A stretch of DNA of 64,000 bases from Escherichia coli (GCF_965641715.1 NZ_OZ282453.1); one strand, 5' to 3'; shown: positions 10,386 through 64,000, numbered from the stretch's first letter. Notes: generated by a model from the sequence alone, not told the origin. Numbers and translations are program-made.

Positions 10386-11932
10386 CAGGCTTCCTCCCCT
10401 TTGCAGATAAATTCACGCGCCAGCAATCCGGTATTGGTGCTGCTGCTCGCCAGAATCACTCCGGCATCAAGCAGCATCTGGCTTTGTTGTTCTAACGATG
10501 GCGTATCAAGATCGGTACCCAGCACATAGGCGAGAATGATCAACTCTCGTCCTTCGGCAGCGGCGATCGCTTTCGCTTCTTTGATCGCCTCGATGGTGGA
10601 GCCGACCGGATCTTCATGCGATCCAAATCCGAGCACAAAATCCATCACGATCACCGCCACTTCTGGATCGCGCGCCTCTTCGAGCAAGCGACTGATGCGG
10701 TTGGTGGGGTCAATCATTGGATGCGGCTTGCCGTTGGTGAAGTCGTCATCGCCAAAGTCGAGGAAGGTGTGTTTGATGCTGCGGTTGATATCTTTCAGGC
10801 GGAATTCCGGATCGGGCTGAATGTTGCTGTAGACATCGCCATGTTTTTCCATCACCGCGAACATGGTTTCGTCGCACAACGTGCCGCCGCAGAACAGGCC
10901 ACGAATGTATTTCTGCTGCGGTTGCAGACGCGCACGCACATCCGCAATCAACGGCTGGTTCAGGGTATGCAGGTCGAGATGTTCTTGTTTCACGCCGGAG
11001 AGCATCACCGCTTTTAGCGCCGCTTCTTTGCTGCCGCGGGCAAACTGTAGCCCCTGCTCATCCACTGGCGTTTCGCCACGACCGAGGAAGCAGACCACCA
11101 CCGGCTTGCGGCAGGCGCGCGCACGTTCCAGCACTTTGCGGGCCACCGCAGGCGCAGGCGGTTTGGAGATCAGCGCAATGATTTCAGTTTGCGGATCGTT
11201 TTCCAGCATCCCGATGGCATCGAGCATCATCAGGCCGCCGATTTTCTCGCTCAGGTCGCGCCCGCCGGTGCCAATCAGTTGCGAAACGCCACCGCCAAAT
11301 TCATGAATGCGGACGCTCAACTCCTGGCTGCCGGTGCCGGATGCGCCAACAATACCGATGTTGCCGCGACGCACGGCGTTACCAAAACAGAGCGACGCGC
11401 CGTTGATAATCGCCGTGCCACAGTCTGGCCCCATCATCAGCAGCCCTTTTTCGTGGGCCAGTTGCTTGAGCGCCAGTTCATCTTCAACTGAGACGTTATC
11501 GGAAAACAGCATCACGTTGAGATCGTTTTGCAGCGCCTGACGCGCTTCGCGAGCGGCAAACAGACCGTTGACCGAAATCACCGCCAGGTTACTTTCCGGG
11601 ATATGCTTTTTGGCGCTGGCAATAGTGGCGTAACGCGCCTCGTGCGAGCCGCTTTGCGCTTTGGTGTTGAACAGTTCTTCAATCTCCACCAGCAACTGCT
11701 CGTTGTCCGCCCCCGATTTACCATTGATGACAATCATCAGGTCGCCGTTTTTCGCCTGCTCCAGCTCCGGCGTCAGCAGTCCTAAATTTTTCAGCACACC
11801 TTTGTTCATTTCGGTCGCCATCGCCACAAATGCCTGCTCGACGCCGTCGAGTTTATTTGCACGCGTGGAGATAGACATCAGCGAGACAGAATCAAAATAG
11901 GTATTCGGTTTAATGACTATTTTAACTGACAT
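10385..11932 (-). CDS. yahF: FdrA-like protein with succinyl-CoA synthetase alpha-type fold
   Basis: 515 aa; CoA-binding/ligase-like glycine-rich segments (GIVGASGTG); matches remembered YahF. Confidence 0.8.
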   Translation of the reverse strand: MSVKIVIKPNTYFDSVSLMSISTRANKLDGVEQAFVAMATEMNKGVLKNLGLLTPELEQAKNGDLMIVINGKSGADNEQLLVEIEELFNTKAQSGSHEARYATIASAKKHIPESNLAVISVNGLFAAREARQALQNDLNVMLFSDNVSVEDELALKQLAHEKGLLMMGPDCGTAIINGASLCFGNAVRRGNIGIVGASGTGSQELSVRIHEFGGGVSQLIGTGGRDLSEKIGGLMMLDAIGMLENDPQTEIIALISKPPAPAVARKVLERARACRKPVVVCFLGRGETPVDEQGLQFARGSKEAALKAVMLSGVKQEHLDLHTLNQPLIADVRARLQPQQKYIRGLFCGGTLCDETMFAVMEKHGDVYSNIQPDPEFRLKDINRSIKHTFLDFGDDDFTNGKPHPMIDPTNRISRLLEEARDPEVAVIVMDFVLGFGSHEDPVGSTIEAIKEAKAIAAAEGRELIILAYVLGTDLDTPSLEQQSQMLLDAGVILASSSTNTGLLAREFICKGEEA

Positions 11933-12785
11933 AATTCCCTCCGTAGGTTTGGCTCAGCGCACAACCATCGGCCATGCCATACAGCATGTCGCAGCCGGAA
12001 CTGGAGCCAATATGTTTAATTTTTTCTATTGCCTGAGTTGCGTTCCCAGGGATGTCATAAATAATGTTGTGAATAAAACGATGAATATTTTCCCGGCAGC
12101 GTTGTTGTAATGCGGCTTCCAGCGTTATGGCACTTAATAACGTGGTATTATTTCTGCCGCGTTGCAAGCCGAGATAAAATTCCTCTTTGTATTTTCCCGC
12201 CGGATGCCCGGAAATAAATAAAATAAGTGCCAGACCTGTTAAATAATCATCGGCTAATGGCGTAAGGCCAATCCCTAAGCCCATCATACTGGCGACCGCT
12301 GAGGCGATATTTTGTTTATCGTTTACTGTCTGAATAACTGCCCGTCGTTTAATATGTAATTCTTTATTTAACGCCTGATAAAACGGATTATCGCCGCGAT
12401 AATTAAACAGGGTTTCATTTTCCCCCAGGTGCTGATGAATAATGTCGTGCCACTGTTGCCAGGCGATAAGGTGAAAATTCACAGCGGTCATTTGCAAGGT
12501 TGGGGACAGCCAACGCCGACAACGACTCATCTCTATATGAAGATGTTGACCAACCGTAATACCTTGATCGTCAAACTGAACCTTATCACCATGCCGGAAC
12601 AGATCATCAAAGTGAGTGAGTGCCAACCGACAACTGTTTGGCGCATTGTCGTACTCTTCACAAAGCAGCGTCAGCAACTGCTGGCGAGCCGGGAGTGCGA
12701 TATTTACCGCTCTGGCAAAGACCTGTTCAACCTGTCCTTGCCCCCGCTGCGCCAGAAAATCCGCATCCGCAGTTAGCGCCCACAC
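11922..12785 (-). CDS. yahE: DUF2877-family protein, YlbF-like
   Basis: 287-aa ORF overlapping yahF start by 11 nt (translational coupling). Confidence 0.75.
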   Translation of the reverse strand: MWALTADADFLAQRGQGQVEQVFARAVNIALPARQQLLTLLCEEYDNAPNSCRLALTHFDDLFRHGDKVQFDDQGITVGQHLHIEMSRCRRWLSPTLQMTAVNFHLIAWQQWHDIIHQHLGENETLFNYRGDNPFYQALNKELHIKRRAVIQTVNDKQNIASAVASMMGLGIGLTPLADDYLTGLALILFISGHPAGKYKEEFYLGLQRGRNNTTLLSAITLEAALQQRCRENIHRFIHNIIYDIPGNATQAIEKIKHIGSSSGCDMLYGMADGCALSQTYGGNYVS

Positions 12786-12824
12786 ACACCGTTTTTCTGG
12801 TGTGTTGATAGCAAGCCTCCCGGT

Positions 12825-13430
12825 TTATGCACCTGCGGCAATCAGTAACTGCGCAATCTCTTCAAAGCCCCGTTCTCGCGCCAGTTCCAGTGGCGTTTTG
12901 CCATATTTATCGGTCAGATGCGGGCTGGCACCGTGTTCCAGCAATAACTGCACAATCGCCTGCTGTTTAATACCACCATCATTAAGCACAATCGCTTCCA
13001 GTAGCGGCGTCCAGCCTACATGGTTGGTCTGGTTAACGTTAATCTCCGTATACGCCAAAAGCTCTTTTACAATACTTAAATGGCCTTTTTCACAGGCAGG
13101 CGTCAGGCCGACACCGCCAAAACGGGTTACGCAATTAAGATCGGGTTTAGCCGGTAAAATAATTCGTAGTAGCGTTAAATCATCGTTCAGACAGCTAATT
13201 AAAAAAGGATTTAAACAGGTATGATCTTGTTTATTAATATCCGCTCCGGCGTCAATTAATGCCTGAACGCAAGCATATTGCTGATATAAACTTGCCAGCG
13301 TAATTGCCGTTTTCCCCTGACGGTCGCAGGTATTAATATCGACACCCAGCGCAAGGCAGTTTTTTACTTTATCGATATCACCCTGTTGTGCAGCCAATAA
13401 ATAGTCGGCAGGTAGATTTTTTATACTCAT
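12825..13430 (-). CDS. yahD: Ankyrin-repeat protein
   Basis: 201 aa with repeated ankyrin-like G-TPL/ALxxG..LL motifs. Confidence 0.8.
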   Translation of the reverse strand: MSIKNLPADYLLAAQQGDIDKVKNCLALGVDINTCDRQGKTAITLASLYQQYACVQALIDAGADINKQDHTCLNPFLISCLNDDLTLLRIILPAKPDLNCVTRFGGVGLTPACEKGHLSIVKELLAYTEINVNQTNHVGWTPLLEAIVLNDGGIKQQAIVQLLLEHGASPHLTDKYGKTPLELARERGFEEIAQLLIAAGA

Positions 13431-33384: not shown

Positions 33385-36300
33385 TTATTTCTCCTCCGCG
33401 TCTTCAGTCTCTGCAGCAACGGCGTTAATTGTCACCTTCACAGGCGTCATTTCGTACCCGCCATACGTCAGTGCGTTGAATGTGAACGTATAGACACCTG
33501 GCTTGCTGGTACTAAATGTACGCGTGATTTTCCCACCTGAGAAATGGTCAGCCTTCGACGGCAGGAATTGATAATCCTTCTCCGTCACTCCTTCCGGAGC
33601 CTCAATGTCGACCCACATACTTCCTCCTACGGGATTGACTCCCGCCATCAGGGTAACCGTCATTGTTGCAGTAGTCTTCCCGTCCGCCACCAGAGAATCT
33701 ACACGTTCTGGAGATGCGGCGAGCACCGCGTTTTTATCATCCGCGACGAATTTAGATTCAGCAGTTTTCGTCGATACCTGACCGTTGGCCTGTTCCACTT
33801 TCGCCGTGAGTGTATATGTCGCTGCGATAGTGGTAGAGCCGGTGAAAACAGCCTGTCCTTGCTCATTAGTTTTCGCCGTCCCTTTAGGATCCAGAACTAA
33901 ATTTTCCGAGCTGGCAGTCAGCGTCACGTCGCTATCCTTCAACAGGTTGTTATTGGCATCAGTCACCGTAACTTTATACGTTTGTTTGGTTTTGCCATCC
34001 GCCACTGCACGGTTGCCAATCACCTCAATACTGGAGATGGTCGCCGTAGTCTTATCGGCCACAAACGTTACAGACTGCGCATTTGAAGGCTGGTCATTTC
34101 CTGCCGACGCCGTGATCTCATACGTTCCGGCAGTCACGGAGACCACTTTCAGTTCCGCTTTACCCTCCTTGTCGGCGTTCACCATGATATTACCGTCTGC
34201 AAGCGGTTTGACGCCCCGAGGCAGATTAAAGACGACCACAGCGCCAGGCAGAAGGTTGCCGTATTGATCCTTAACCGTTGCCGTCAGCGTAAAGGCATCA
34301 TTGTCGTTTGCCACTTTTGGCGTGCTGCCATCAACCTCCAGGGTCGCCTGACCGGTACTGAAATCCGCCTTGAATTTCACCGTAACCGTCTTCTGAGCAT
34401 TATTCACTGAGGCCGTGATGCTGTGTTCCCCGGCAACCGTTGACATAAGCTCAATGTCCACTTTCCCTGCCGCATTGGTTGTTACTGTATTCCCCGTCTT
34501 GCTGGTCACACCCTGCGGTAAAGTCAGCGTAACTTCTTGCCCCTGCAACGGGTTACCATAGCTGTCCACGACGGTCAGGGTTATCTGGTTAGCAGACTGT
34601 CCATTAGCCAGTTGGTTATTAACCTTCACTGTCATATCACGAATCTCAGCCTTAGATGCGTCACCTGCAACGTTCAGCACCAGTGGCTGAGCAACGGCAT
34701 TTTGGCCGTTCACTCGCGGCATCACAGACAACTGACCCGCGGCAGATCCCAGCGTTAAGGTCGACACGTAGACCCCATTACCTTTCTCTGTCCAGTTTCC
34801 TGCTGAAGGACGCTCACTCCCCGTGCTGGCGGCACCGCTAAACACTGGTGCATCTGGCTTCAGCCCGGTGACCGGGTTCCCGTACGCATCCTTCACGGTG
34901 AAGGTGAGTTCCGTCGTCGTTTTGACGGTCGGAGCCTTATTGTCCGCAACAAGCGTAGAGTTCGCTGATGACATCTCTCCGGCGATGACCGTCAACTGCG
35001 CGGCTTCGGTGGCTGCTGGCTGGCCGTTGAAGAGAGGCATGACGCGAAGCTCGCCCGTCTTTCCACCTGTAGTCAACGTAGCAACATAGGAACCGTTACC
35101 TTTTTCGGTCCAACTGGAAACGGTCGCCCCTTCAGAGGCGGTCCCCGTCAAACTTGCCGACAACGCAAGACCACTGATAGCGTTGCCATGCGCATCTTTC
35201 GCCACCAGCGTCACGGTTGTGCTTTCGCCGGCTTTTACGTGATCTTCTGCGACAGAGACTTTCGACTGGTTTGAAGATAACGCATCAGCCACCACGGTTA
35301 CTTTTGCCGCATTTGCTGCCGCATTCTGTCCATTTAGCTTCGGCATAACTTCTAATTCACCCGCCGTAGAGCCGAGAGTAATCTGCGCAGTCCACGTCCC
35401 ATCACCATTATTTGTCCAGCCCGATGCCGTAGAACCTTCAGCAGCGGCACCCGCTAATGACGGCGCTTCCGGCGTGAGGCTGGTCACAGGGTTGTCATAG
35501 GCATCTTTTACCGTCCAGATTGCCGTAACTGTACCCCCAACCACCGGTTTATCAGGATTCAGGGTGATGGACGAATGTGCTGCATCAAGCGGCCCGGCAA
35601 CAAACTTCAGCGTTTGTTGTAATGTGCCCAGCTGATACTGCTCGCTGAAAGCACGCACAACAACGTTTCCGGCACGGGTCGAAGAAACCGTGGCGCTGTA
35701 AACGCCTGGTTTTATTTCCGAAATGGCACCAACGGTTACACCATTAGTGTCTTGCGGAACAAATCGCAAGCGGCTGGCTTCTCCCGTCACCGGATTACCC
35801 TCGGAGTCCACCGCAGTCAACGTCAACGTATAGGCTTGCTGACCATCAGCAACCACGTCACCTGACGGCTCGTTAGCGCTCAGGGTGGAGTTTGCCACAT
35901 CCATCATCGTGGCCCGCAGTTCTGCAGTGACGGTTTTGCTCATGCCATCAACGCTAACAGTAATCGTTGCCTCACCTGACTGCGTTCCGGTAGTAAAGAC
36001 AGACTGATACACCCCTGCTTCAGTTTCGGTGAACTCACCCAGTGTTGGCTTTGCCTGTGATTTAGTGGCCTTCAGGGAACGAGTCACAATATTTCCAGCC
36101 GGTTTGAAAGTTAGTTCAGTCTTGATCTGATCTTTCATGCCCGTGACTGGCTGGCCCTCGGCGTCGCGCAGAGACAGCACCAGCGGTTTTTGCTCATTAC
36201 CGTTAGCAAGCATTTGAATACGGCTCTGACCGTCAAGCGTTAACGCCGTGCGATCGGCGCTCATACCTGCTCCGGTAATGACCACCTCTGTCTGCACGCG

Positions 36301-37635
36301 TTTTGAGGCATTGTCTTTGTTATCGTAGGCAACCGCAGAAATCGCATAATAATTGTCTTTGCCTGGACGATAAGCCGGGAGCGTTACTTGCCACTGACTA
36401 CCCTGACCGGTAATTTTGCCACCTTCAGCCAGTAATGACGGCGCTTCCCACTGCACATTTTTCAGTCCGTGAGTTGCTTTGCTGACCACAAGCCCCAGGG
36501 AAAGTGTCTGACCGCCCTTGCCTTCAATACGTTCAGGCAGAGCAATACGGATCACTTCAGATTTGCGGTACTCAAGAACGATGTTGTTATTACGCTCAAC
36601 CAGGTCATAGCGGCTGCCTGCCAGCATTCGACGCTCGCGAATGCTGTCTGTATCGAGTTGTTTCTCCAGAGGTTCGCCAATCCGATAATTAACTTCCAGG
36701 CCAAAGCGAGTGTCATTCTCACCACTCTTGCCCTGCTTATGCCCGGCACTCAGGGTCAGAAGAGGTACTGGCGTGTAATTCACTTCAGCGGTAATCGCAT
36801 GTGGATCTTTCTGGCGTTTATCTTTGCCAAACAGCCCGACTTCATCGCCATAATACTGCTCATACATCAGGCTTGCGCCAAGCTGCGGCCAGGCGGGTAA
36901 ATAGCCCTCAGCACGAATATCCCAGCCATTCGCCGGGCGTTCCTGATAATCCTCAACATCCGGCGATTTTTTCCAGCCAGAAGCCCGAATATAACCATTG
37001 GCGCTCAGTTTCAGATAATCGCGCCAGTATTCCGCACCAACACCAATGCGGGTATGACTACGGGATAAATCATGGTCGATAAAGGTGTTCACCCCCGCCA
37101 TCCAGTCATTTCCTGAAAAATGACGCCAGCCAAAACCAATATTTGACTGAGTACGATCGTCTGTACGATGTATTGCTCCCTGAGTGAACAACATATTTGT
37201 TGGCGTATCATAAATCGGATAAAGCATTTCCAGCGAAGAATCCTTCAGCGAGAAATCTTTATCGACATTCAGTTTGACGCGCGCAGTACCGTATTTCCCG
37301 AGCCACTCCTGTATTTCCTGGTTAGCTTTAGCGGTGGCCATTCCGGTAATAAAATTACGTGTCGCATCGCTATCTGGCTGACTGCTTAAAAATGTCCCGG
37401 CATTTGCGGCAAACGACGCGACATTTTTCTCCACGTTATTATCAGCAGTTACCGTAGTATTTCCCATGCTCAACCGTGGCTGAACAGCATGCTGCGCACG
37501 TGCCGCCATTACTGGGGTAAAAGTGACTGCGAGTGGAAAAAGAACCTGAACAGAGATATTTGCCCACGCCACGCAGCGGGCCAGAACTGAATAACGAAAT
37601 CGTGGTTGTTTATGACCTGTTTTATAACGTGACAT
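33385..37635 (-). CDS. eaeH: Intimin/invasin-family inverse-autotransporter adhesin (FdeC/EaeH), full length
   Basis: 1416-aa ORF; N-terminal signal and beta-barrel region, then many ~100-aa bacterial Ig-like repeats. Confidence 0.88.
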   Translation of the reverse strand: MSRYKTGHKQPRFRYSVLARCVAWANISVQVLFPLAVTFTPVMAARAQHAVQPRLSMGNTTVTADNNVEKNVASFAANAGTFLSSQPDSDATRNFITGMATAKANQEIQEWLGKYGTARVKLNVDKDFSLKDSSLEMLYPIYDTPTNMLFTQGAIHRTDDRTQSNIGFGWRHFSGNDWMAGVNTFIDHDLSRSHTRIGVGAEYWRDYLKLSANGYIRASGWKKSPDVEDYQERPANGWDIRAEGYLPAWPQLGASLMYEQYYGDEVGLFGKDKRQKDPHAITAEVNYTPVPLLTLSAGHKQGKSGENDTRFGLEVNYRIGEPLEKQLDTDSIRERRMLAGSRYDLVERNNNIVLEYRKSEVIRIALPERIEGKGGQTLSLGLVVSKATHGLKNVQWEAPSLLAEGGKITGQGSQWQVTLPAYRPGKDNYYAISAVAYDNKDNASKRVQTEVVITGAGMSADRTALTLDGQSRIQMLANGNEQKPLVLSLRDAEGQPVTGMKDQIKTELTFKPAGNIVTRSLKATKSQAKPTLGEFTETEAGVYQSVFTTGTQSGEATITVSVDGMSKTVTAELRATMMDVANSTLSANEPSGDVVADGQQAYTLTLTAVDSEGNPVTGEASRLRFVPQDTNGVTVGAISEIKPGVYSATVSSTRAGNVVVRAFSEQYQLGTLQQTLKFVAGPLDAAHSSITLNPDKPVVGGTVTAIWTVKDAYDNPVTSLTPEAPSLAGAAAEGSTASGWTNNGDGTWTAQITLGSTAGELEVMPKLNGQNAAANAAKVTVVADALSSNQSKVSVAEDHVKAGESTTVTLVAKDAHGNAISGLALSASLTGTASEGATVSSWTEKGNGSYVATLTTGGKTGELRVMPLFNGQPAATEAAQLTVIAGEMSSANSTLVADNKAPTVKTTTELTFTVKDAYGNPVTGLKPDAPVFSGAASTGSERPSAGNWTEKGNGVYVSTLTLGSAAGQLSVMPRVNGQNAVAQPLVLNVAGDASKAEIRDMTVKVNNQLANGQSANQITLTVVDSYGNPLQGQEVTLTLPQGVTSKTGNTVTTNAAGKVDIELMSTVAGEHSITASVNNAQKTVTVKFKADFSTGQATLEVDGSTPKVANDNDAFTLTATVKDQYGNLLPGAVVVFNLPRGVKPLADGNIMVNADKEGKAELKVVSVTAGTYEITASAGNDQPSNAQSVTFVADKTTATISSIEVIGNRAVADGKTKQTYKVTVTDANNNLLKDSDVTLTASSENLVLDPKGTAKTNEQGQAVFTGSTTIAATYTLTAKVEQANGQVSTKTAESKFVADDKNAVLAASPERVDSLVADGKTTATMTVTLMAGVNPVGGSMWVDIEAPEGVTEKDYQFLPSKADHFSGGKITRTFSTSKPGVYTFTFNALTYGGYEMTPVKVTINAVAAETEDAEEK

Positions 37636-41192: not shown

Positions 41193-42119
41193 TCAATTTT
41201 CGAGTTTTACTCTTTTCTCCACCATAAAATCAATAAAAGCACGAACTTTAGAGGGCATTCTCACCCGTGATGAAACATAAATATAAAATCCAGGAAATGA
41301 AACAGCCCAATCCTCAAGAATCGGCTGTAACTTGCCCGCATTGATATGTTCAGCGATTGCAAAATCCAGATGTTGAATGATACCCGTTCCATTCAGCGCC
41401 ATTCGTATCATGCTTTCGTCATCATTAGAAATATACTTACCTGAAACCTCTATTTCGAACTCTTCATTACCCCCCACAACATTAGAAAACTCCCATGCAG
41501 AGAGTGCACCGCTACTTTTATGCCGCAACCGAAGGCAATTATGGTTACTCAGTTCCTGAGGCGTTTCAGGAATACCGTGTTCTTTTAAATAATCTGGCGA
41601 TGCCACAGTAACCAGTTTAATAAGCGGAGAAACAGGAACGGCAGTCATATGCTCATCCAGTCCTTGCTCAAGACGTATGCCCACATCACAGCCGTCCGCA
41701 ATAATGTTAGATAAACCGTCATCCATAATGAGTTCTATCTTTGTTTTGGGGTAACGAGTAAGAAACTCGCCAATATGAGGCTCAACAAGCATCCGTGCTG
41801 CAACACGGGAGGAATTTATTCTCAACAGGCCTGTAGGTTCAAGTTGGGTATCACCAACATCTTTCAAAGCATCATCAATTTGCCCCAAAGCCGACACCAG
41901 CACTTCATACAGACGCTGTCCTTCCTCAGTAAGCGACATATTGCGGGTCGTACGGTATATCAGCTTGGTGTTAAGACGTTCCTCAAGAGATTTTAAATTC
42001 TGGGACAATGCGGCCCGCGTAATACCCATTTCAGAAGCGGCTCTGGAAAAACTGCCGGCACGAACAATCAGCGCAAACCAGGCAAGAGAAGGCAAAATTG
42101 AAGGCTCTATTTTCATCAT
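41193..42119 (-). CDS. LysR-family transcriptional regulator
   Basis: HTH FSRAASEMGITRAALSQNLKSLEERL; start assigned to MMKIEP (tool ORF extends to 42182); divergent from the hydrolase gene. Confidence 0.75.
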   Translation of the reverse strand: MMKIEPSILPSLAWFALIVRAGSFSRAASEMGITRAALSQNLKSLEERLNTKLIYRTTRNMSLTEEGQRLYEVLVSALGQIDDALKDVGDTQLEPTGLLRINSSRVAARMLVEPHIGEFLTRYPKTKIELIMDDGLSNIIADGCDVGIRLEQGLDEHMTAVPVSPLIKLVTVASPDYLKEHGIPETPQELSNHNCLRLRHKSSGALSAWEFSNVVGGNEEFEIEVSGKYISNDDESMIRMALNGTGIIQHLDFAIAEHINAGKLQPILEDWAVSFPGFYIYVSSRVRMPSKVRAFIDFMVEKRVKLEN

Positions 42120-42275
42120 TGTAAACCTTAACTTAACACTGTGATAGATATTAGACCATTGATGATAACCAATACAAGTCATACTATTACGCCGTTCTCG
42201 ATATGAACACGAATGCCAGTTGCGGATAATAGAAATGATATTTAAATCTGTTTAGGCAAATCCCCGGAGCTTGAA

Positions 42276-43196
42276 ATGAAAACTGTTTCGATAAAACACA
42301 CTTACTGGGATATAGCTGCTGATATCTATTTCCCTGACGATTTTAATAGTGAAAAAAAGTATCCTGCCATTATCAGCGCCCATCCAATTGGAAGCTGCAA
42401 AGAACAGACATCGGGTAGTGTGTATGGTGCCGCCCTGGCAAAAGCTGGCTTTATCGTCATTGCTTTTGATGCCAGTTTTCAGGGTAGCAGCGGTGGGGAA
42501 CCGCGTTATCAGGAAGATCCAACAATGCGAGTAAAAGACTTCAGCATTGTCGTTGATTACCTTACCAGCTTACCTTACGTTGATGCCGGGCGTATTGGTG
42601 TACTGGGTATTTGTGGTGGAGGTGGATATGCCATTAATGCCGCAATGACAGAACGTCGAATTAAAGCTATTGGTACTGTCACGGGTGCAAACTACGGGCG
42701 TCTTATGCGTGAGGGATTTACAGCGTTTAATCCTATCGGAGCACTCGAAGCAATAGCGCAACAAAGAACAGACGAAGCTAACGGCGCAAAACTTCGCGTA
42801 GATGATTTACTCCCCTCTTCTCCGGATGCAGCTCTTGAAGCGGGATTAACAGAAATAGACCTTTTTGAAGCCACAGAATATTATCGTTCGCCACGAGGCT
42901 GTGCACCTAATGGGGTAAATCGTTCGCTATTCTCACATCAGACTGTTGCCGTGGGTTGGGATGCATTTCATCTTGCAGAAGTGCTGTTAACTCAACCAAT
43001 AATGGTTGTGGTGGGCGATAGAGTGGGCGCATTTGGTGCCTACCGTGACGGCTGCGAAATTATTGGCCGCGCTGCTTCAAAACATAAAGAGCTGGTCGTG
43101 GTTGAAGGTTATTCACATTACGACCTGTATGATAAGCCAGAACCTGTGAAACAGGCACTCGATAAATTAATTCCTTTTTATAAAACACATTTGTAA
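42276..43196 (+). CDS. Alpha/beta-fold hydrolase with Cys nucleophile (dienelactone-hydrolase-like)
   Basis: 306 aa; nucleophile-elbow motif GICGGGG; C-terminal GYSHYDLYD (His region); no signal peptide. Confidence 0.75.
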   Translation: MKTVSIKHTYWDIAADIYFPDDFNSEKKYPAIISAHPIGSCKEQTSGSVYGAALAKAGFIVIAFDASFQGSSGGEPRYQEDPTMRVKDFSIVVDYLTSLPYVDAGRIGVLGICGGGGYAINAAMTERRIKAIGTVTGANYGRLMREGFTAFNPIGALEAIAQQRTDEANGAKLRVDDLLPSSPDAALEAGLTEIDLFEATEYYRSPRGCAPNGVNRSLFSHQTVAVGWDAFHLAEVLLTQPIMVVVGDRVGAFGAYRDGCEIIGRAASKHKELVVVEGYSHYDLYDKPEPVKQALDKLIPFYKTHL

Positions 43197-43440
43197 TAAT
43201 TTTACAGGGAGATTTCTTATCTCCCTTATATTTATCCTTTACTGACTACACAACAATAATAAAATTACTCAAAAAGAAATTTCATTAAAGAAACAAAAAA
43301 GCAGCAACTCAATTATTAAGATTATTAGAAACCCTTTGAAGGGATTATAAATAAAGCCAGAAATCTTGGTTCCAAAGCTGGCAACAACTAACCAGTTAAA
43401 ACATACGCATCAAAATCAGATAAACATTTGAGGTATTGTT

Positions 43441-44583
43441 ATGACAAATAAACACCCATCATTGTTTTCTCCTTTTATGCTGACAGAAAAAATAAAGCTA
43501 CGTAATCGTATCGTTATGGCTCCTATGACGACCTGGTCAGCGAATCCTGATGGAACCATCTCTGAGCAAGAACTCGAATTTTATAAACGCCGCTCACAAA
43601 ATGTTGGTTTAGTAATAACAGGATGTACCTATGTCACGCCAAGCGGCATTGGGTTTACTCATGAATTTGCCGCGTATGACGACCGTTTCATTAACAGCCT
43701 TGAAAAGTTAGCAGCGGCAGCCAAAAGTGGGGGTGCTCCGGCTATTTTGCAGATTTTCCACGCCGGTAATAAAGCCATCCCGGAGCTTGTACCAAATAAC
43801 GATGTTATTAGTGCCAGCGCATCAAGCGTAAAATCTGGTGACTTTATGAAGAGAGTGGTACAAAGCAGGGAAATGACTGAAAACGAAATTCAGGAAACCA
43901 TTAGAGCATTCGGAGATGTCACAAAAAGGGCGATTAAAGCAGGTTTTGATGGCATTGAACTTCATGGTGCGCACGGATTCCTTCTACAGAATTTCTTCTC
44001 CCCTCTATTTAACCAGCGTAATGACCGATGGGGAGGAGATCTCGAAGGACGTATGCGCTTCCCGCTGGCCGTATTACAGGAAGTAAAAAATGTAGTCTAT
44101 GAATATGCGACAAAGCCCTTTGCCATCGGTTACAGAATATCTCCTGAAGAATCTGCAACAGGGGGGCTGCGGATAGAGGATACTTATAAACTCCTTGATC
44201 GGCTCATTTCATCCGGTATTTCGTATATACATACCTCGCTGGTCAGTATTAACGAAAGCTACCCTGTTGAGTCGCCAAATGGCCCCCGAACTATTGAATT
44301 GATTTTAAATCATATTGCAGGCAGAGTGCCGGTAATCGCTGCAGGTAAAATACGCACACCGTCTCAGGCTCAAGAAGCAATTTCCACTGGCCTGCCACTT
44401 GTTGCGATCGGTAAAGGGCTGGTGATAAATCCAGAATGGGTGACTTTAGCTGAATCAGGTAGAGGCCATGAAATTCAAACAACCCTTAATCCACAACTTG
44501 TTCCTGAATTAACCATTCCGGATAAACTATGGGATCAAATTCAGGCATCGAAAGGAACTGGCTGGTTTCCGTTAATGGATTAA
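43441..44583 (+). CDS. NADH:flavin oxidoreductase (Old Yellow Enzyme family)
   Basis: 380 aa; OYE motifs HGAHGFLLQNFFSP and DRWGG. Confidence 0.8.
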   Translation: MTNKHPSLFSPFMLTEKIKLRNRIVMAPMTTWSANPDGTISEQELEFYKRRSQNVGLVITGCTYVTPSGIGFTHEFAAYDDRFINSLEKLAAAAKSGGAPAILQIFHAGNKAIPELVPNNDVISASASSVKSGDFMKRVVQSREMTENEIQETIRAFGDVTKRAIKAGFDGIELHGAHGFLLQNFFSPLFNQRNDRWGGDLEGRMRFPLAVLQEVKNVVYEYATKPFAIGYRISPEESATGGLRIEDTYKLLDRLISSGISYIHTSLVSINESYPVESPNGPRTIELILNHIAGRVPVIAAGKIRTPSQAQEAISTGLPLVAIGKGLVINPEWVTLAESGRGHEIQTTLNPQLVPELTIPDKLWDQIQASKGTGWFPLMD

Positions 44584-45056
44584 ATATCTATTACTCTCCC
44601 GAGAGTAAAACTATCAAATCAATGAGTAACTGATACAGCCTCACAAATTCTTTCAGATAATTAACCCGTCACTGCGGCACGTTCTCTCATAAGGCGTGCC
44701 TGCAGTGTAATCCAGTATGTATCCGGCATAGTTGACGGTTTAATAGAGCTCAATTCCTCGCCCAGGTTACCAACAACGATATCTTGTATAACACCCCAGG
44801 AGATACGACATTATGATGAGATGCGATATGCTCCTCAGCGCCAATCAACGCCAGGACTGGGCCAGTCTTGAGATCAGACTCATTCCCGGAACTGACTTCA
44901 GGCGACATATATCAATGACGTTGGTGCAATAAAAGATAGCCGATGTAATACATCTATTCAAATTTGTGATACATATCAAAAAATTGGTTGACCAAACTCG
45001 TTATTTATATAAGGGCACTTACGAAGTGCGCTCTTTTTTAAAGCGAGGAAGTACCA

Positions 45057-45158
45057 ATGAAAGAGAATAAAGTACAACAAATCAGTCATAAACTGATTAA
45101 TATCGTTGTTTTTGTCGCAATTGTAGAATACGCCTATTTATTTCTCCATTTCTATTAA
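45057..45158 (+). CDS. ykgR: 33-aa small hydrophobic protein (YkgR-like)
   Basis: ATG with GAGG-type RBS (aagcgaggaagtaccaATG); MKENKVQQISHKLINIVVFVAIVEYAYLFLHFY has a single predicted TM helix. Confidence 0.5.
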   Translation: MKENKVQQISHKLINIVVFVAIVEYAYLFLHFY

Positions 45159-45491
45159 TAACGGCAATAAACTGTTCACTTCAGTGATATTTAAAATATG
45201 CATCCTCTCCCTTTTTGTAAGTAATTATTATATCCGTGGGAGAGGAATACACGCTGTCAGGTAATCAATCATACTGCGATAAATCATCGGCCAGTAAAGT
45301 GGAGATAACCTCCATTCTCGAAAAATCCATACTCTCAGCGAAACTATCATCAATCACTCATCCAGGCGTTTATGGGAGCGTCGCCAATGGCTGTTAACAA
45401 TGCCAGAGTTCCCCGTTGAGGAAATTCCACATACCACTAATGGTCACAGGGATTGGGTGTTGAAATGATCCGGATGAGCATGTATCTTTAT

Positions 45492-45513
45492 GGTTATGTT
45501 ATAACATAACAGG
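45492..45513. promoter_or_regulatory. Zur box upstream of ykgM-ykgO
   Basis: perfect 18-bp palindrome gttatgttataacataac, 9 nt upstream of the ykgM ATG, matching the Zur operator core TGTTATA-TATAACA. Confidence 0.8.
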
Positions 45514-45521
45514 CAAAAATG

Positions 45522-45785
45522 ATGAAGCCCAATATCCATCCTGAGTATCGTACTGTGGTGTTCCACGACACCAGTGTTGATGAGTACTTTAAAATCGGCT
45601 CGACTATCAAAACAGACCGTGAGATTGAGCTGGATGGCGTAACGTATCCGTACGTAACAATTGATGTCTCTTCGAAATCGCACCCGTTCTATACAAGGAA
45701 GCTGAGAACAGTGGCATCAGAAGGAAATGTTGCACGGTTCACCCAACGTTTTGGTCGTTTTGTTAGCACGAAAAAGGGGGCATGA
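45522..45785 (+). CDS. ykgM: Ribosomal protein L31 paralogue, type B (zinc-independent)
   Basis: 87 aa [18 protein letters not shown]; lacks the CxxC zinc ribbon of L31. Confidence 0.9.
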
Positions 45786-45925
45786 TGAAAGTCCTTAACT
45801 CTCTGCGTACCGCAAAAGAACGCCATCCAGACTGTCAGATTGTGAAGCGAAAAGGACGGCTATATGTGATTTGTAAATCTAATCCACGCTTTAAGGCCGT
45901 TCAGGGTCGTAAGAAAAAACGTTGA
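45785..45925 (+). CDS. ykgO: Ribosomal protein L36 paralogue (zinc-independent)
   Basis: 46 aa [46 protein letters not shown]; start overlaps the ykgM stop. Confidence 0.85.
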
Positions 45926-45976
45926 TTTAAAATTCGACGAATTAACGATATTTGTCTGATTAATAATCAGACCGGA

Positions 45977-46013
45977 TTAATGTTGGTGTATTTATTACAC
46001 CAGCATTAATTTT
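45977..46013 (+). terminator. Intrinsic terminator after ykgO
   Basis: 14-bp stem ttaatgttggtgta/tacaccagcattaa (one G-U pair), 5-nt loop, then TTTT. Confidence 0.6.
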
Positions 46014-46940
46014 CCTGGGGATGTATCTTCCTGTTCATTTAAGGTCAACTGCCTGACGTTTCTCTCCGAATATTCCATTATATTAATGTTGACTTGTTGA
46101 CCAGCTTCGCCCCTGTATGCTGGCATCAACCCTCTTTTAGACTGAACACGCCACTCAGTTTCCTCCCTTTGCGACGCAGCCTGCATTTACACTCAAACTG
46201 TTAAGATGATAAATGTGGTAAATCTGTTGGTACTGACATAAAAACGTTTACGCCACAGGAACGGCCTGATCCACCGGTAACCCCGTCGCCGACGTTCGAG
46301 TGCCAGTTAGAGTAACGCGCACAGATGACTGAATGCAGTGCCCTGGCAAAGAGGCCATCGTTCCGGTGACAACTGGCAGTCTTCGTTTAACTTCACTTAA
46401 TCTGGCTCTTAGGGGGCTTACCGGACAGATGACGTACTTACACCTGTTTAATTTTTCATCACTTATTGGGATGAACACCCATAACCATTTTGTGCGGCAT
46501 GTTAACCCATTAAAACACCTTACTGATTGGCAAATCATCTTTAATTATGACTCATGATAGTTTTATATTCTATTTCTTATCATTTAGACTTGTTTTTTTA
46601 CTAGTCCATTACACAACACATTAAGACTATTCCTAACATCTCAGGGCAAAGTTCCTGGCTAATATAAAATGCAAGTAAGAATTGAACGTTATATTGCCAA
46701 TAACCTTATGAAACTGAATGTCTTTTTCTTCTTATCAAAAAAGCAATATTTTCATTTTTTGTAAATATTGACTTAACCATGGAATTCATTTTCTGTTCAC
46801 ATATTGACACTCATCAGGAAAAAAACATAAATTTAAACCTAATCGAAATAATTAAAACTTAATCTCGTTTAACCTATATTGATATGTGCTACGTATCTTA
46901 TTTACTTCCGATTTACTAAAGAAACTGAATGTACCTGTAA

Positions 46941-47552
<612 letters not shown>

Positions 47553-47626
47553 ACTCCAGGCAAGTTAGTTTTAAAAAATGACTCACTGGGACATCACGTC
47601 CTCAATTCAACTCGGGAAGAAATACA

Positions 47627-48214
47627 ATGAAAAAAAAGGTTCTGGCAATAGCTCTGGTAACGGTGTTTACCGGCATGGGTGTGGCGCAGGCTGCTGATGT
47701 AACAGCTCAGGCTGTAGCGACCTGGTCGGCAACAGCCAAAAAAGACACCACCAGTAAGCTGGTTGTGACGCCACTCGGTAGCCTGGCGTTCCAGTATGCC
47801 GAAGGCATTAAAGGTTTTAACTCACAGAAAGGTCTATTTGACGTGGCTATCGAAGGTGACTCAACGGCTACCGCCTTTAAACTGACCTCACGTCTTATCA
47901 CCAACACATTAACCCAGTTGGATACCTCAGGTTCCACACTGAATGTGGGCGTGGATTATAACGGCGCGGCAGTCGAAAAAACTGGCGATACCGTGATGAT
48001 CGATACCGCCAACGGCGTACTGGGCGGCAACCTTAGCCCGCTGGCAAACGGTTACAATGCCAGCAATCGTACCACCGCACAGGATGGTTTCACTTTCTCC
48101 ATCATCAGCGGCACCACCAATGGTACCACCGCAGTAACCGATTACAGCACTCTACCGGAAGGCATCTGGAGCGGCGACGTTAGCGTACAGTTCGACGCGA
48201 CCTGGACCAGTTAA
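47627..48214 (+). CDS. ecpA: Major pilin of the E. coli common pilus (EcpA/MatB)
   Basis: 195 aa with signal peptide ending VAQA; Thr/Ser/Gly-rich pilin-like body. Confidence 0.9.
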
Positions 48215-60726: not shown

Positions 60727-61920
60727 CTAAAGCGCACCGGCCTTCTGGCGTGCGGTAACAAAGGTCAGTACGCCCGCGCAAAGGAGCAGCACACTACTCA
60801 TGGCAAACGTACTCTGCCAGCCAAGGCGGTCAAACACGATGCCTCCTGCCGTTGATCCAAGGGCGATTGAGAGCTGAATCACCGCGACCATGAGCCCGCC
60901 TCCGGCTTCGGCGTTGTCAGGCAACGTACGCGCAATCCATGTCCACCATCCGGTTGGCGCGGCGGTGGCCAGCATGCCCCAGAGTCCTAACAGCAGCGAG
61001 ACCGTCCAGACGTGATGCCCGGTAAGCATCAGACCGATGGCAATGACGGCCATCAGTCCGGGTATGGCCATCAGCGTGGGGTAGAATTTTCTGTTGAGAA
61101 ATGTCGAAACAACCAGCGTGCCAATAAAACCGGCCACGCCGATAATCAGCAAAATCAACGACAAGCCTAAGGAATTAACCCGTGTCACCGACTCCAGAAA
61201 CGGGCGCACATAGGTGAATAGCGCAAACTGCCCCATGAAAAACAGGCCACAAGCTATCATGCCGACCACAACCATGCGGCGGCTAAATAAGCGGAATACC
61301 GCGCCACATGACGTGTGGCTTTTATTCGCATCCATGCTGGGCAGACTAATGCACTGCCAGATAAAGGCGACAACCGCCATGGGCACCAGGCACAAGAAAG
61401 CGCCTCGCCATCCGACCGTAGCCCCCAGATAGCTTCCCAGCGGCGCGGCCACGACCGTCGCCAGCGCATTACCGGCGTTGAAAATCGCCAGCGCACGCGT
61501 GACCTGATGCTGCGGCACCAGACGAATCGCCGTTGCCGCTGACATCGACCAGAATCCGCCAATGGCCACACCAATCATCGCACGACCGACCATATACATC
61601 AGATAACTGGTAGCCAGCGCAATAATAAGCCCCGATACGGCCATCAGAACCGTCATCCCCAGCAGCAGGAACTTACGATTCATCTTTCCAGCTAGCGTTG
61701 AAAGCGTCAGGCTGGTCAGAACCGCCAGCGCGCCGGAGATAGCAATCCCCTGCCCTGCCAGCCCCTCCGTCACGCCTAAATCGCGGGTAATCGGCGTGAG
61801 CAGGCTGACGGGCATAAATTCAGAAGCAATCAGCACAAACACGCACAGGGTCATGGCAAAAATACCGCCCCAGTATGCGCGCTGATGATGAGGTGATAGT
61901 GTTTGGCTTAGTGTCGACAT
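60727..61920 (-). CDS. MFS transporter (DHA1-like efflux type)
   Basis: 397 aa, about 12 hydrophobic helices; 76 nt downstream of the hydrolase gene on the same strand. Confidence 0.8.
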   Translation of the reverse strand: MSTLSQTLSPHHQRAYWGGIFAMTLCVFVLIASEFMPVSLLTPITRDLGVTEGLAGQGIAISGALAVLTSLTLSTLAGKMNRKFLLLGMTVLMAVSGLIIALATSYLMYMVGRAMIGVAIGGFWSMSAATAIRLVPQHQVTRALAIFNAGNALATVVAAPLGSYLGATVGWRGAFLCLVPMAVVAFIWQCISLPSMDANKSHTSCGAVFRLFSRRMVVVGMIACGLFFMGQFALFTYVRPFLESVTRVNSLGLSLILLIIGVAGFIGTLVVSTFLNRKFYPTLMAIPGLMAVIAIGLMLTGHHVWTVSLLLGLWGMLATAAPTGWWTWIARTLPDNAEAGGGLMVAVIQLSIALGSTAGGIVFDRLGWQSTFAMSSVLLLCAGVLTFVTARQKAGAL

Positions 61921-61995: not shown

Positions 61996-63132
61996 TTATT
62001 TCAGTTTGGCCTGGAAAAATTGTTCGAACTTCGCGAAAGGTATTTTTCCGGCCACGTTATCGTACAGGTCCACGTGATTTGCTCCTGGTACCACCACCAG
62101 CTCTTTGTCGTTACTGCCAACCACCTTGTAAGCATCTTCAGCAAAATAGCGTGAATGCGCTTTCTCACCGGTCACAATCAGCGTCGGGATGGTGATTTCA
62201 CTGGCGTAGCTCAACAGCGGCATATTCATAAATGACAGCGGCATCGTTGCCGTCCACGCCCCGGTAGAGTTAACGGAACGTTCGTGGAAGCCGCGCGGCA
62301 TGCGATAGTAGTCAAAGAACTCTTTCAGTACCGGATGAGGATTTGCCGGCAGCGTTTCTGGCAGAATACGCTCGCCCGCACTGACCTTGCCGTTGCTATC
62401 GACATTAATATCATGACCACCGTGAGCGAACGTTCCGCTCTGCGCATCCTTCCAGCGCTGTTCATTCAGATATTGCAGAACAGCACGACGGTCGGCGGTA
62501 GAATAACGGTCTTCGCCATCCCCCACACCATGGCCCATCGCCCGGCTCATGTCATACATCACGCTGGTAGCAACCGCTTTAACGCGGGTATCCATCGCCA
62601 CGTCGTTCAGCGCCATGCCACCCCAGCCACAAATACCGAGCAGCCCGATACGGTTGCGATCTACCTCTTTTTGCAGCCCTAAGAAATCCACCGCCGCGCT
62701 GAAATCTTCAGTGTTGATATCCGGTGAGGCGACGTTTCGCGGATAGCCGCCGCTTTCCCCGGTGTAAGAAGGATCGAACGCCAGGGTAACAAACCCTCGT
62801 TCCGCCAGCGTCTGCGCATACAAGCCGCTGGATTGCTCTTTCACCGCGCCAAATGGCCCACTGACCGCAATCGCCGCCAGCTTGCGATCGCCACGGTCTT
62901 TAGGCAGGTAAAGATCGCCCACTAAGGTGATGCCATATCGGTTCGGGAACGATACTTTACGGTGATCGACTTTCTGGCTCTCGGCGAACGTTTTATCCCA
63001 TTTATCGGTCATGGACACAGGGGCATTAGGATTGGTTGAATCAGCATAACTCATTGTCGTGACTCCACTTAATGATGCGAAAAGCAGCATGGCCGGCATC
63101 GCGGTTTTTAGCGTTCGGGTGAAGGCTTTCAT
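61996..63132 (-). CDS. Secreted alpha/beta-fold hydrolase with Cys nucleophile, paralogue of 42276..43196
   Basis: start set at MKAFTRTL; signal peptide ending SYADS; shares KEQ-SG-Y, AFD-S, GICGxGG and HxDLYD motifs with the other hydrolase. Confidence 0.75.
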   Translation of the reverse strand: MKAFTRTLKTAMPAMLLFASLSGVTTMSYADSTNPNAPVSMTDKWDKTFAESQKVDHRKVSFPNRYGITLVGDLYLPKDRGDRKLAAIAVSGPFGAVKEQSSGLYAQTLAERGFVTLAFDPSYTGESGGYPRNVASPDINTEDFSAAVDFLGLQKEVDRNRIGLLGICGWGGMALNDVAMDTRVKAVATSVMYDMSRAMGHGVGDGEDRYSTADRRAVLQYLNEQRWKDAQSGTFAHGGHDINVDSNGKVSAGERILPETLPANPHPVLKEFFDYYRMPRGFHERSVNSTGAWTATMPLSFMNMPLLSYASEITIPTLIVTGEKAHSRYFAEDAYKVVGSNDKELVVVPGANHVDLYDNVAGKIPFAKFEQFFQAKLK

Positions 63133-63318
63133 AAAAATCCCCATAAAAAACAACAGAGAGATACAGGTTTCCGACGGACAACGCTGCGGTGCTTTACTTT
63201 GATGGGGTCATTATAGTGAGCAGAATTAGTGCTGATTAGGGGGCGATTAATGCTAAGATTAATACCATATTGTTATAAATTAATGCGAAGATTGCCGGCA
63301 TGAAGGGGGGATGTTTCA

Positions 63319-64000
63319 ATGGCGAAAAGGGAGAACTACAACGAGCTGTACCTGTTTATGCAGGTGGTTCGAGAAGGCAGCTTTACCGCAGCGGCTCAGC
63401 GGCTGGGTCTTGCTCAGTCAGGAGTCAGCCGTTCTGTTCGCGAGCTTGAAGAAAGGCTGGGTGTCCAGCTGCTAGTGCGCACCACGCGTAAACTGTCGCT
63501 GACACAAGCAGGCGAGCAGCTCTACCAGAAGACGGCATCTGGATTTGAAATGTTAGATCTTGGGCTTGCCACACTGGCGCACTATCGAGAGACGCCCTCC
63601 GGCACGGTGCGTATCAATGCCAGCCAGCACGCGATTGATAAATGCCTGCTGCCAAAGCTGGCGGTATTTAAACAGCGATATCCTGATATCCGGCTTGAAC
63701 TGATAAATGAGAGCCGGTTCGTCGATATCATCGAGGAAAGATTCGATGCAGGTGTCCGCCTGGGGCCTGAAGTCGGCCAGGGTATGGTCGCGGTACGCAT
63801 CACGCCCGATATGGAGATGGCAATTGTGGGGACTCCGGAACATTTTCGTCGCTATGGTTTTCCGCAAACTCCGGCGGATTTAAAGGCGCATCCCTGTATC
63901 GCCTATCAGTTTGCCGACGGCAGCGTATACCAGTGGGAACTCAATCAGGATGATAAAAAAATCACTCATCGCCCTGAAGGGCAATGGGCCCTATCCGACA
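63319..64000 (+). CDS. LysR-family transcriptional regulator (3' end beyond window)
   Basis: MAKRENYNELYLFMQVVREGSFTAAAQRLGLAQSGVSRSV HTH; runs off the window end; divergent from hydrolase-MFS. Confidence 0.8.
   Translation, partial: MAKRENYNELYLFMQVVREGSFTAAAQRLGLAQSGVSRSVRELEERLGVQLLVRTTRKLSLTQAGEQLYQKTASGFEMLDLGLATLAHYRETPSGTVRINASQHAIDKCLLPKLAVFKQRYPDIRLELINESRFVDIIEERFDAGVRLGPEVGQGMVAVRITPDMEMAIVGTPEHFRRYGFPQTPADLKAHPCIAYQFADGSVYQWELNQDDKKITHRPEGQWALSD

Follow-up and report, generated by a model that had tools for sequence, protein, structure and literature searches.

Two distantly related alpha/beta hydrolases with a predicted cysteine nucleophile, one of them with a putative signal peptide, encoded in Escherichia coli

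In a stretch of Escherichia coli DNA of 64,000 nucleotides (GCF_965641715.1 NZ_OZ282453.1; here denoted the window and numbered from its first base), which is 99.4-99.6% identical to complete E. coli chromosomes, we noticed two genes encoding alpha/beta hydrolases. The gene located at 42276..43196 on the plus strand is denoted ABH-1 and the gene located at 61996..63132 on the minus strand is denoted ABH-2. Each product carries a cysteine where alpha/beta hydrolases place their nucleophile, and ABH-2 begins with a predicted signal peptide. The two open reading frames (ORFs) and the elements within them are as follows.

42276..43196, plus strand: ABH-1, 306 amino acids, a leaderless alpha/beta hydrolase of a YcjY-like clade; RefSeq 'alpha/beta hydrolase' WP_000860021.1 in strain F2_81.
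42399..42407, plus strand: K42-E43-Q44 motif of ABH-1, at the start of the helix that follows strand b3; invariant in 63 diverse members, codons checked.
42612..42614, plus strand: codon of Cys113 of ABH-1, predicted nucleophile in a G-I-C-G-G elbow, from the strand-Cys-helix order in the model, alignments and invariance.
43017..43019, plus strand: codon of Asp248 of ABH-1, candidate third triad residue at position G+1, at the end of the b7 strand (242-249) and outside the canonical slot.
43116..43133, plus strand: H281-Y-D-L-Y-D286 motif of ABH-1, with the predicted catalytic His281, invariant and situated after strand b8 (271-280).
61996..63132, minus strand: ABH-2, a precursor of 378 amino acids, predicted exported alpha/beta hydrolase and orthologue of Pseudomonas aeruginosa PA2218, from the ORF, a match to 2HDW (E 6.6e-125) and an AlphaFold2 (AF2) model with a predicted local distance difference test (pLDDT) score of 90.6.
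62059..62076, minus strand: H353-V-D-L-Y-D358 motif of ABH-2, holding the predicted catalytic histidine; codons checked.
62164..62166, minus strand: codon of Glu323 of ABH-2, candidate third residue, the first after the b7 strand (317-322) in the model.
62629..62631, minus strand: codon of Cys168 of ABH-2, predicted elbow nucleophile and sole cysteine of the mature protein; codon checked.
63043..63132, minus strand: predicted Sec-type signal peptide of ABH-2, residues 1-30, with an n-region of net charge +3, the hydrophobic core AMLLFASLSGVT, S-Y-A at -3 to -1 and a predicted cut before Asp31.

The ATG of ABH-1 is preceded by a GGAG Shine-Dalgarno sequence 6 nucleotides upstream. For ABH-2, the initial annotation had found the gene correctly and assigned it 385 amino acids, whereas 61996..63132 read from its ATG encodes 378; the larger figure belongs to the maximal ORF, which opens at a TTG at 63153 and differs by 7 codons. 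Pairwise BLASTP aligned the two proteins with 32% identity over 304 columns (E 7e-43), far past chance, supporting the proposal that they are paralogues. All four motifs that had been put forward as shared, KEQ-SG-Y, AFD-S-G-SGG-PR, RIG-LGICG-GG and HxDLYD, are seen in this alignment, with G-I-C-G-x-G common to both elbows. ABH-1 is 40.6% identical to E. coli YcjY and ABH-2 34%; judged from the sequences, the paralogy of ABH-1 and ABH-2 is an old and distant divergence. We rejected a recent duplication with relocalisation, as the two proteins belong to different old clades and have neither the LysR partner nor the gene cassette in common.

Full-length matches assign both proteins to the branch of the alpha/beta hydrolases (COG1073) that includes YcjY (PDB 5XB6) and PA2218 (PDB 2HDW). 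ABH-1 matched 5XB6 along residues 12-304 (E 1.4e-65), ABH-2 matched 2HDW along residues 25-382 with the E-value given above, and the family profile retrieved 5XB6 at E 4e-118 and 2HDW at E 3e-112. Both proteins have the fold of this branch, including the cap inserted between b6 and b7, and its signature of K-E-Q after b3, a G-x-C-x-G elbow and H-x-D-L-Y-D after b8. Pfam and NCBIfam returned only partial, clan-level matches (Peptidase_S15, PETase, Hydrolase_4, DLH and UilS). A profile search of 1.84 billion cluster representatives, clustered at 50% identity, retrieved at least 729 family clusters at E <= 1e-30 and 3726 at E <= 1e-10. Orthologues of ABH-1 with 75-81% identity occur in Burkholderia, Cupriavidus, Pseudomonas, Stenotrophomonas, Shewanella, Rhodococcus, Mycobacterium, Propionispora and Nitrospira, and those of ABH-2 are 84-98% identical throughout Enterobacterales. 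The ABH-1 orthologues (P0006-P0120) keep this level of identity over Proteobacteria, Actinobacteria, Negativicutes and Nitrospira, and the cognate LysR regulators are just 51-54% identical among Proteobacteria; for an unnamed accessory enzyme, the sequence pattern is one of unusually strong constraint and cross-phylum transfer. Family members also occur in clusters: Shewanella has three within 7 kb (L006 6001..6924, 11173..12105 and 12162..12924), and Propionispora carries an ABH-1-type and a YcjY-type gene in tandem (L004 6001..7881), the latter 62% identical to YcjY.

The closest counterpart of ABH-1 in K-12, YcjY (b1327, annotated 'putative hydrolase'), has the same length, is leaderless, shares K-E-Q, G-I-C-x-G and H-x-D-L-Y-D, and likewise has a divergent LysR partner. 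It differs in belonging to a separate clade and in its neighbours mpaA, ycjG and mppA, which the ABH-1 locus lacks. PA2218, a structural-genomics 'hypothetical protein', resembles ABH-2 at the level of an orthologue, with the elbow GICGWGG, a Glu after b7, HVDLYD and an N-terminal WDKTFP extension. The chain of PA2218 as aligned opens at residue 31 with 'CQTSP...', a sign that its leader may be of lipoprotein type, in place of the SYA-D junction of ABH-2, and ABH-2 has a 20-residue insertion in the cap that PA2218 lacks.

To place the cysteine, we used structure models and alignments. The AF2 model of ABH-1 (pLDDT 97.1; secondary structure by DSSP) shows strand 102-112, Cys113 and helix 114-125, with His281 following strand 271-280. 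In the ABH-2 model, read in the same way, strand 157-167 leads to Cys168 and helix 169-180, and His353 follows strand 343-348. Both cysteines thus sit between strand b5 and the next helix, and both histidines in the loop after the last core strand. The elbow cysteine aligned to the nucleophilic Ser of PET46/8B4U (GLSMG), of 9PJB and of DcsB (GMSFG). The annotation that the elbow holds a cysteine was therefore borne out by the models together with known nucleophiles, and the alignments gave no indication of Cys113 or Cys168 lying elsewhere.

Conservation was measured at three depths. Over 63 diverse relatives K42, E43, Q44, D65, G70, G111, C113, R128 and H281 are invariant; among 114 family representatives the elbow residue is Cys in 102 and Ser in 2. 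Of 120 ABH-2 orthologues, 119 keep the elbow cysteine, as do all ABH-1 orthologues whose motif could be located (117/120 among the matches listed). One ABH-2 orthologue cluster (P0226) has Ser in this place (GISGWG), perhaps as a natural Cys-to-Ser variant, perhaps through a sequencing error. Mature ABH-2 contains exactly one cysteine, that of the elbow, in 116/120 orthologues, and a single cysteine was found in 16/21 exported-looking family representatives versus 12/40 leaderless ones. The keeping of an unpaired cysteine in an oxidising compartment argues that the elbow cysteine of mature ABH-2 is functional. The ABH-1 clade has two further conserved cysteines, Cys41 (42396..42398, just before K-E-Q) in 118/118 orthologues and Cys260 (43053..43055) in 111/118; both are missing in ABH-2 and YcjY. 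A redox switch between Cys41 and the nucleophile of ABH-1 is conceivable.

The second part of the annotation, that one copy lacks a signal peptide and the other has one, also agrees with our analysis. ABH-2 starts with MKAFTRTLKTAMPAMLLFASLSGVTTMSYA, followed after the predicted cut by DSTNPN, and this leader is found only in ABH-2; in ABH-1 and YcjY there is no hydrophobic leader and the fold begins directly. The leader is tripartite, with a core of 12 residues (mean hydropathy 1.77) and small residues, Ser and Ala, at -3 and -1 of the junction between SYA and D. Its sequence drifts as signal peptides do, and the pattern is kept across genera of Enterobacterales. In the ABH-2 model pLDDT is below 50 over residues 1-31, and the fold begins at about residue 41. 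Relatives of the PA2218 type have Sec-like, lipoprotein-like (…LALAGC) or twin-arginine-like leaders, and some are leaderless.

Next to the two hydrolase genes lie the following features.

41193..42119, minus strand: LysR-family regulator divergent from ABH-1, with the RefSeq start; the ORF reaches 42182.
43206..43226, plus strand: terminator-like hairpin with a T-rich tail, right after the ABH-1 stop, from a consensus scan in which such sites were no more frequent than in shuffled sequence.
43441..44583, plus strand: old-yellow-enzyme-type NADH flavin oxidoreductase downstream of ABH-1, NamA/NemA-like with scores below cutoffs, in the place that an NmrA-like gene takes in other taxa.
60727..61920, minus strand: major facilitator superfamily (MFS) transporter, NepI/AraJ/SotB-like, 75 bp downstream of ABH-2.
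63319..64000, plus strand: LysR regulator divergent from ABH-2, beginning MAKRENYNELYLF... and running off the window end.

The regulator divergent from ABH-1 shares 51-54% identity with the LysR proteins encoded divergently from the ABH-1 orthologues of Shewanella, Cupriavidus and Stenotrophomonas. In these three genera and in Rhodococcus the hydrolase gene adjoins a gene for an NmrA-like NAD(P)-binding protein (57-71% identical among themselves), downstream of the hydrolase in the former and upstream in Rhodococcus. A search for a remnant of this partner downstream of ABH-1 in the window found none. In K-12, downstream of ycjY, ymjC/ymjD (L009 6600..6934) is such a remnant of an NmrA-like reductase gene (tblastn E 6e-16, 54% over 46 amino acids), a further likeness between the YcjY and ABH-1 loci. 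Two aldo-keto reductase genes lie upstream of ABH-1. Promoter and terminator scans gave background levels save for the one hairpin after ABH-1, whose position suggests that ABH-1 is monocistronic here. The MFS transporter is a probable operon partner of ABH-2, going by the gene spacing and by the recurrence of the LysR/hydrolase/MFS cassette in Dickeya and Rahnella, with a 294-residue LysR in the same position. A Cyclophil_like2 (PF18050) gene (L010 6234..6743; L011 4576..4998) is inserted in the Dickeya cassette and also adjoins a PA2218-type hydrolase gene on an unrelated metagenome contig; it is missing from the E. coli ABH-2 cassette. Taken as they read, the neighbourhoods of ABH-1 and ABH-2 suggest inducible small-molecule handling.

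By the annotation of strain F2_81, the region reads rclABC, fdeC/eaeH, two aldo-keto reductases, two LysR, the 'alpha/beta hydrolase' ABH-1 and the NADH flavin oxidoreductase, followed by ykgR/M/O, ecpRABCDE, ykgJ, yagU, paoABCD, the MFS transporter, the second 'alpha/beta hydrolase' (ABH-2) and its divergent LysR. ABH-1 is carried by 2115/5426 complete E. coli genomes (39%), O157:H7 among them, and ABH-2 by 939/5426 (17%). K-12 has neither gene, and its family member ycjY lies at another locus. The window is a mosaic in composition: the genes of ABH-1 and ABH-2 have GC fractions of 0.455 and 0.536, and a low-GC stretch at 42001..48000 (0.40-0.42 versus 0.50 for the whole window) spans ABH-1, the flavin reductase and the ykgR-ecpR interval. 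At 33385..37635 (minus strand), fdeC/eaeH, which encodes an inverse-autotransporter adhesin, is an unbroken ORF of 1416 amino acids in the window and has an internal stop in F2_81. In F2_81 a partial copy of ykgR (L001 34506..34574) lies past the LysR of the ABH-2 cassette, beyond the point where the window ends and about 19 kb from the intact ykgR that comes after the ABH-1/flavin-reductase pair, an arrangement hinting that the flank was rearranged or duplicated long ago.

We consider it likely that ABH-1 and ABH-2 are anciently diverged enzymes of the YcjY/PA2218 branch with a cysteine nucleophile, acting in the cytoplasm and the periplasm, respectively. In the proposed mechanism, Cys113 of ABH-1 and Cys168 of ABH-2 would be activated by the histidine after b8 (281 and 353) and would attack the carbonyl of an ester, thioester, lactone or amide, giving an acyl-thioester enzyme that water would then resolve. 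The acid at the end of b7 (Asp248 or Glu323) may orient the histidine in these two proteins; across the family, the machinery would consist of Cys and His as a pair, a third position that varies and the invariant K-E-Q. ABH-1, whose gene is paired with a divergent LysR, would act in the cytoplasm. ABH-2 would be made with a cleavable Sec signal peptide and act in the periplasm, and its gene is probably co-transcribed with the MFS transporter under its own divergent LysR. The same chemistry would then take place in both compartments, as the initial annotation had proposed, probably on small-molecule esters, lactones or thioesters of LysR-controlled detoxification or efflux modules. The sequences and models show the fold, the family, the positions and conservation of the residues, the conserved leader and the synteny, from which the chemistry, localisation, regulation and class of substrate are inferred.

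Several points weigh against this explanation, two of them at the third catalytic position. Aligned by full-length profile to the Ser hydrolase 7QJM, our reference for the acid slot, ABH-1 and ABH-2 have Val250 and Ala, respectively, opposite the catalytic Asp of 'HSDAD' (position G+3 after b7), and the residue at G+1 is Ser in YcjY, so that a full triad is unproven. Furthermore, a literature search on YcjY, PA2218, 5XB6 and 2HDW returned no enzymology, giving just the three leads on YcjY taken up below and nothing relevant on PA2218 or the two structures; DcsB and GrgF, the nearest relatives in structure that have been characterised, carry out acyl transfer or cyclisation and are not simple hydrolases; the signal peptide of ABH-2 was judged by rule-based features and conservation only; and the genes around ABH-1 and ABH-2 are generic and name no substrate.

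Concerning the acid itself, alignments to 8B4U and 9PJB placed the catalytic Asp opposite a two-residue gap in the ABH proteins. Asp248 and Glu323 lie two residues ahead of the canonical slot and are well kept within their clades, in 116/118 ABH-1 and 117/120 ABH-2 orthologues, respectively. Family-wide, the G+1 column reads E30/S26/D19/T7/G5. With Val or Ala in the canonical slot and a G+1 acid that varies across the family, the Cys-His-Asp triad of the initial annotation is not established. What can be defended from the alignments is conservation of a Cys-His pair, to which Asp or Glu, depending on the clade, may add the third member of a triad.

Other readings were weighed against these data. 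One is that the proteins are acyltransferases or synthases, in which a molecule other than water would take the acyl group from the cysteine thioester, as in polyhydroxyalkanoate (PHA) and complexed poly-3-hydroxybutyrate (cPHB) synthases or in GrgF and DcsB; we regard it as unlikely. The GXCXG of ycjY was earlier used to nominate YcjY as a candidate cPHB polymerase, according to the passage of PMC3709699 that cites Rychlewski. In our comparison the figures were 44.3 for YcjY, 39.0 for PA2218, 34.0 for DcsB, 33.4 for 7QJM, 32.3 for GrgF and 22-25 for dienelactone hydrolases, which lie among generic esterases; the high rank of DcsB and GrgF makes these fungal trans-acting polyketide release enzymes the nearest characterised structures. 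GrgF is a Cys enzyme (bioRxiv 10.1101/2020.12.16.421545). However, identity to DcsB (7D78) and GrgF (6LZH) is just 18-21%, the nucleophile of DcsB is a Ser, and both enzymes act on polyketides bound to acyl carrier protein (ACP) within biosynthetic clusters, a context that the ABH-1 and ABH-2 loci do not have: we saw no polyketide synthase, nonribosomal peptide synthetase or PHA genes near ABH-1, ABH-2 or the orthologues examined. In addition, no PhaC/PHA synthase Pfam family was among the hits at E <= 0.01, only the G-x-C-x-G motif being common, and the periplasm would offer ABH-2 no coenzyme A or ACP donors.

A further reading, which we also hold to be improbable, takes the family as a widespread, mechanistically distinct class with Cys-His and K-E-Q, no canonical acid and one universal substrate, either a small molecule or derived from the cell wall; ABH-2 would be the periplasmic equivalent, its unpaired thiol needing DsbG-type protection. 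The 75-81% identity of the ABH-1 orthologues across phyla is the reason for supposing a single universal substrate, and the link of ycjY to PgrR and mpaA, as well as the filamentation seen on ycjY overexpression, would fit. The same two observations speak for a related and slightly less probable proposal, namely that the enzymes are peptidases or amidases acting on peptidoglycan-derived peptides, with YcjY as a cytoplasmic recycling enzyme and ABH-2 as its periplasmic counterpart. K-12 ycjY belongs to the PgrR (YcjZ) regulon together with mpaA (PMC5934670) and adjoins ycjG and mppA by annotation, and its overexpression makes E. coli filament (PMC3614548). Peptidase_S15 is moreover the top Pfam hit of ABH-1; for PF02129 (Peptidase S15/CocE-NonD) ABH-1 and ABH-2 scored 40.4 and 27.3 bits against a cutoff of 23. 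These matches are limited to the generic N-terminal half of the fold (profile positions 5-128 and 2-173 of 262), and where PF02129 has the Ser of G-x-S-x-G, both proteins have Cys. ABH-1 and YcjY are only 41% identical, and none of mpaA, ycjG and mppA lies beside ABH-1, ABH-2 or their orthologues, whose conserved partners are LysR, the NmrA-like reductase and the MFS transporter.

It is more doubtful still that the two proteins are quorum-quenching acyl-homoserine lactonases like UilS of Serratia. UilS is a characterised cytoplasmic lactonase of the alpha/beta fold that was once annotated as a dienelactone hydrolase (PMC11633161), and its family NF047920 is the top NCBIfam hit of both ABH-1 and ABH-2. 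However, the scores, 73.2 and 61.8 bits against a curated equivalog cutoff of 400, place it at a distance from them, and E. coli is not known to make acyl-homoserine lactones.

There is very little to recommend the view that ABH-2 stays in the cytoplasm because translation starts at an internal Met and skips the signal peptide. RefSeq starts ABH-2 of F2_81 at Met27 (63054; L001 32068..33126), giving a product of 352 amino acids, five other clusters are annotated at the same length, and a GGAG lies 8 nucleotides upstream of this ATG. Against this, 100/120 orthologue clusters are called at 378 amino acids with the leader, the 26 codons upstream of Met27 conserve a signal-peptide pattern over genera, and leaders of Sec, lipoprotein or Tat-like type recur in PA2218-type relatives. 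Met27 itself gives way to I, K or L in the orthologue clusters P0127, P0146 and P0236, which argues that the 378-residue form has the real start. The RefSeq start that deletes the signal peptide in some strains thus looks wrong on comparison of the orthologues.

The least probable reading, that these are true dienelactone hydrolases with a Cys-His-Asp triad, draws on the shared alpha/beta fold, on the G-x-C-x-G cysteine (Cys113 aligned to Cys123 of ClcD) and on an ABH-1 score marginally over the DLH cutoff (25.7 versus 21 bits), but ABH-2 (18.7 bits) falls under the cutoff of PF01738, the ABH-1 match covers residues 28-131 on profile positions 12-123 of 217 only, hhalign gave a probability of 56% and aligned no more than the N-terminal half, and the F2_81 annotation shows neither chlorocatechol nor maleylacetate reductase genes nearby. 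Of the ClcD active-site set (Glu36, Arg81, Asp171 and Arg206 around Cys123 and His202), Glu36 falls on Pro37 of ABH-1 and the Asp171 slot is empty in ABH-1 and ABH-2, the alignment ending before Arg206. The landmark residue numbers of the ClcD sequence used here check out. The idea that Glu43 of K-E-Q corresponds to Glu36 was dropped on the same alignment. The dienelactone hydrolase framing of the initial annotation is hence only loosely right, in that its elbow cysteine stands and its canonical Asp does not.

Cysteine-type alpha/beta hydrolases, the structures of YcjY and PA2218 and the GXCXG motif of the family are already known; ABH-1 and ABH-2 are additional members of this already solved family, and current understanding is not overturned. 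If the proposed chemistry is true, up to three cysteine-nucleophile enzymes of one uncharacterised family, YcjY, ABH-1 and ABH-2, are present in many E. coli strains, O157:H7 among them. L,D-transpeptidases are clients of the DsbG/DsbC thiol-protection system, and a periplasmic enzyme whose nucleophile is its sole cysteine would, if this is what ABH-2 is, be a natural client as well. Identification of the substrate would annotate thousands of 'alpha/beta hydrolase' genes over phyla.

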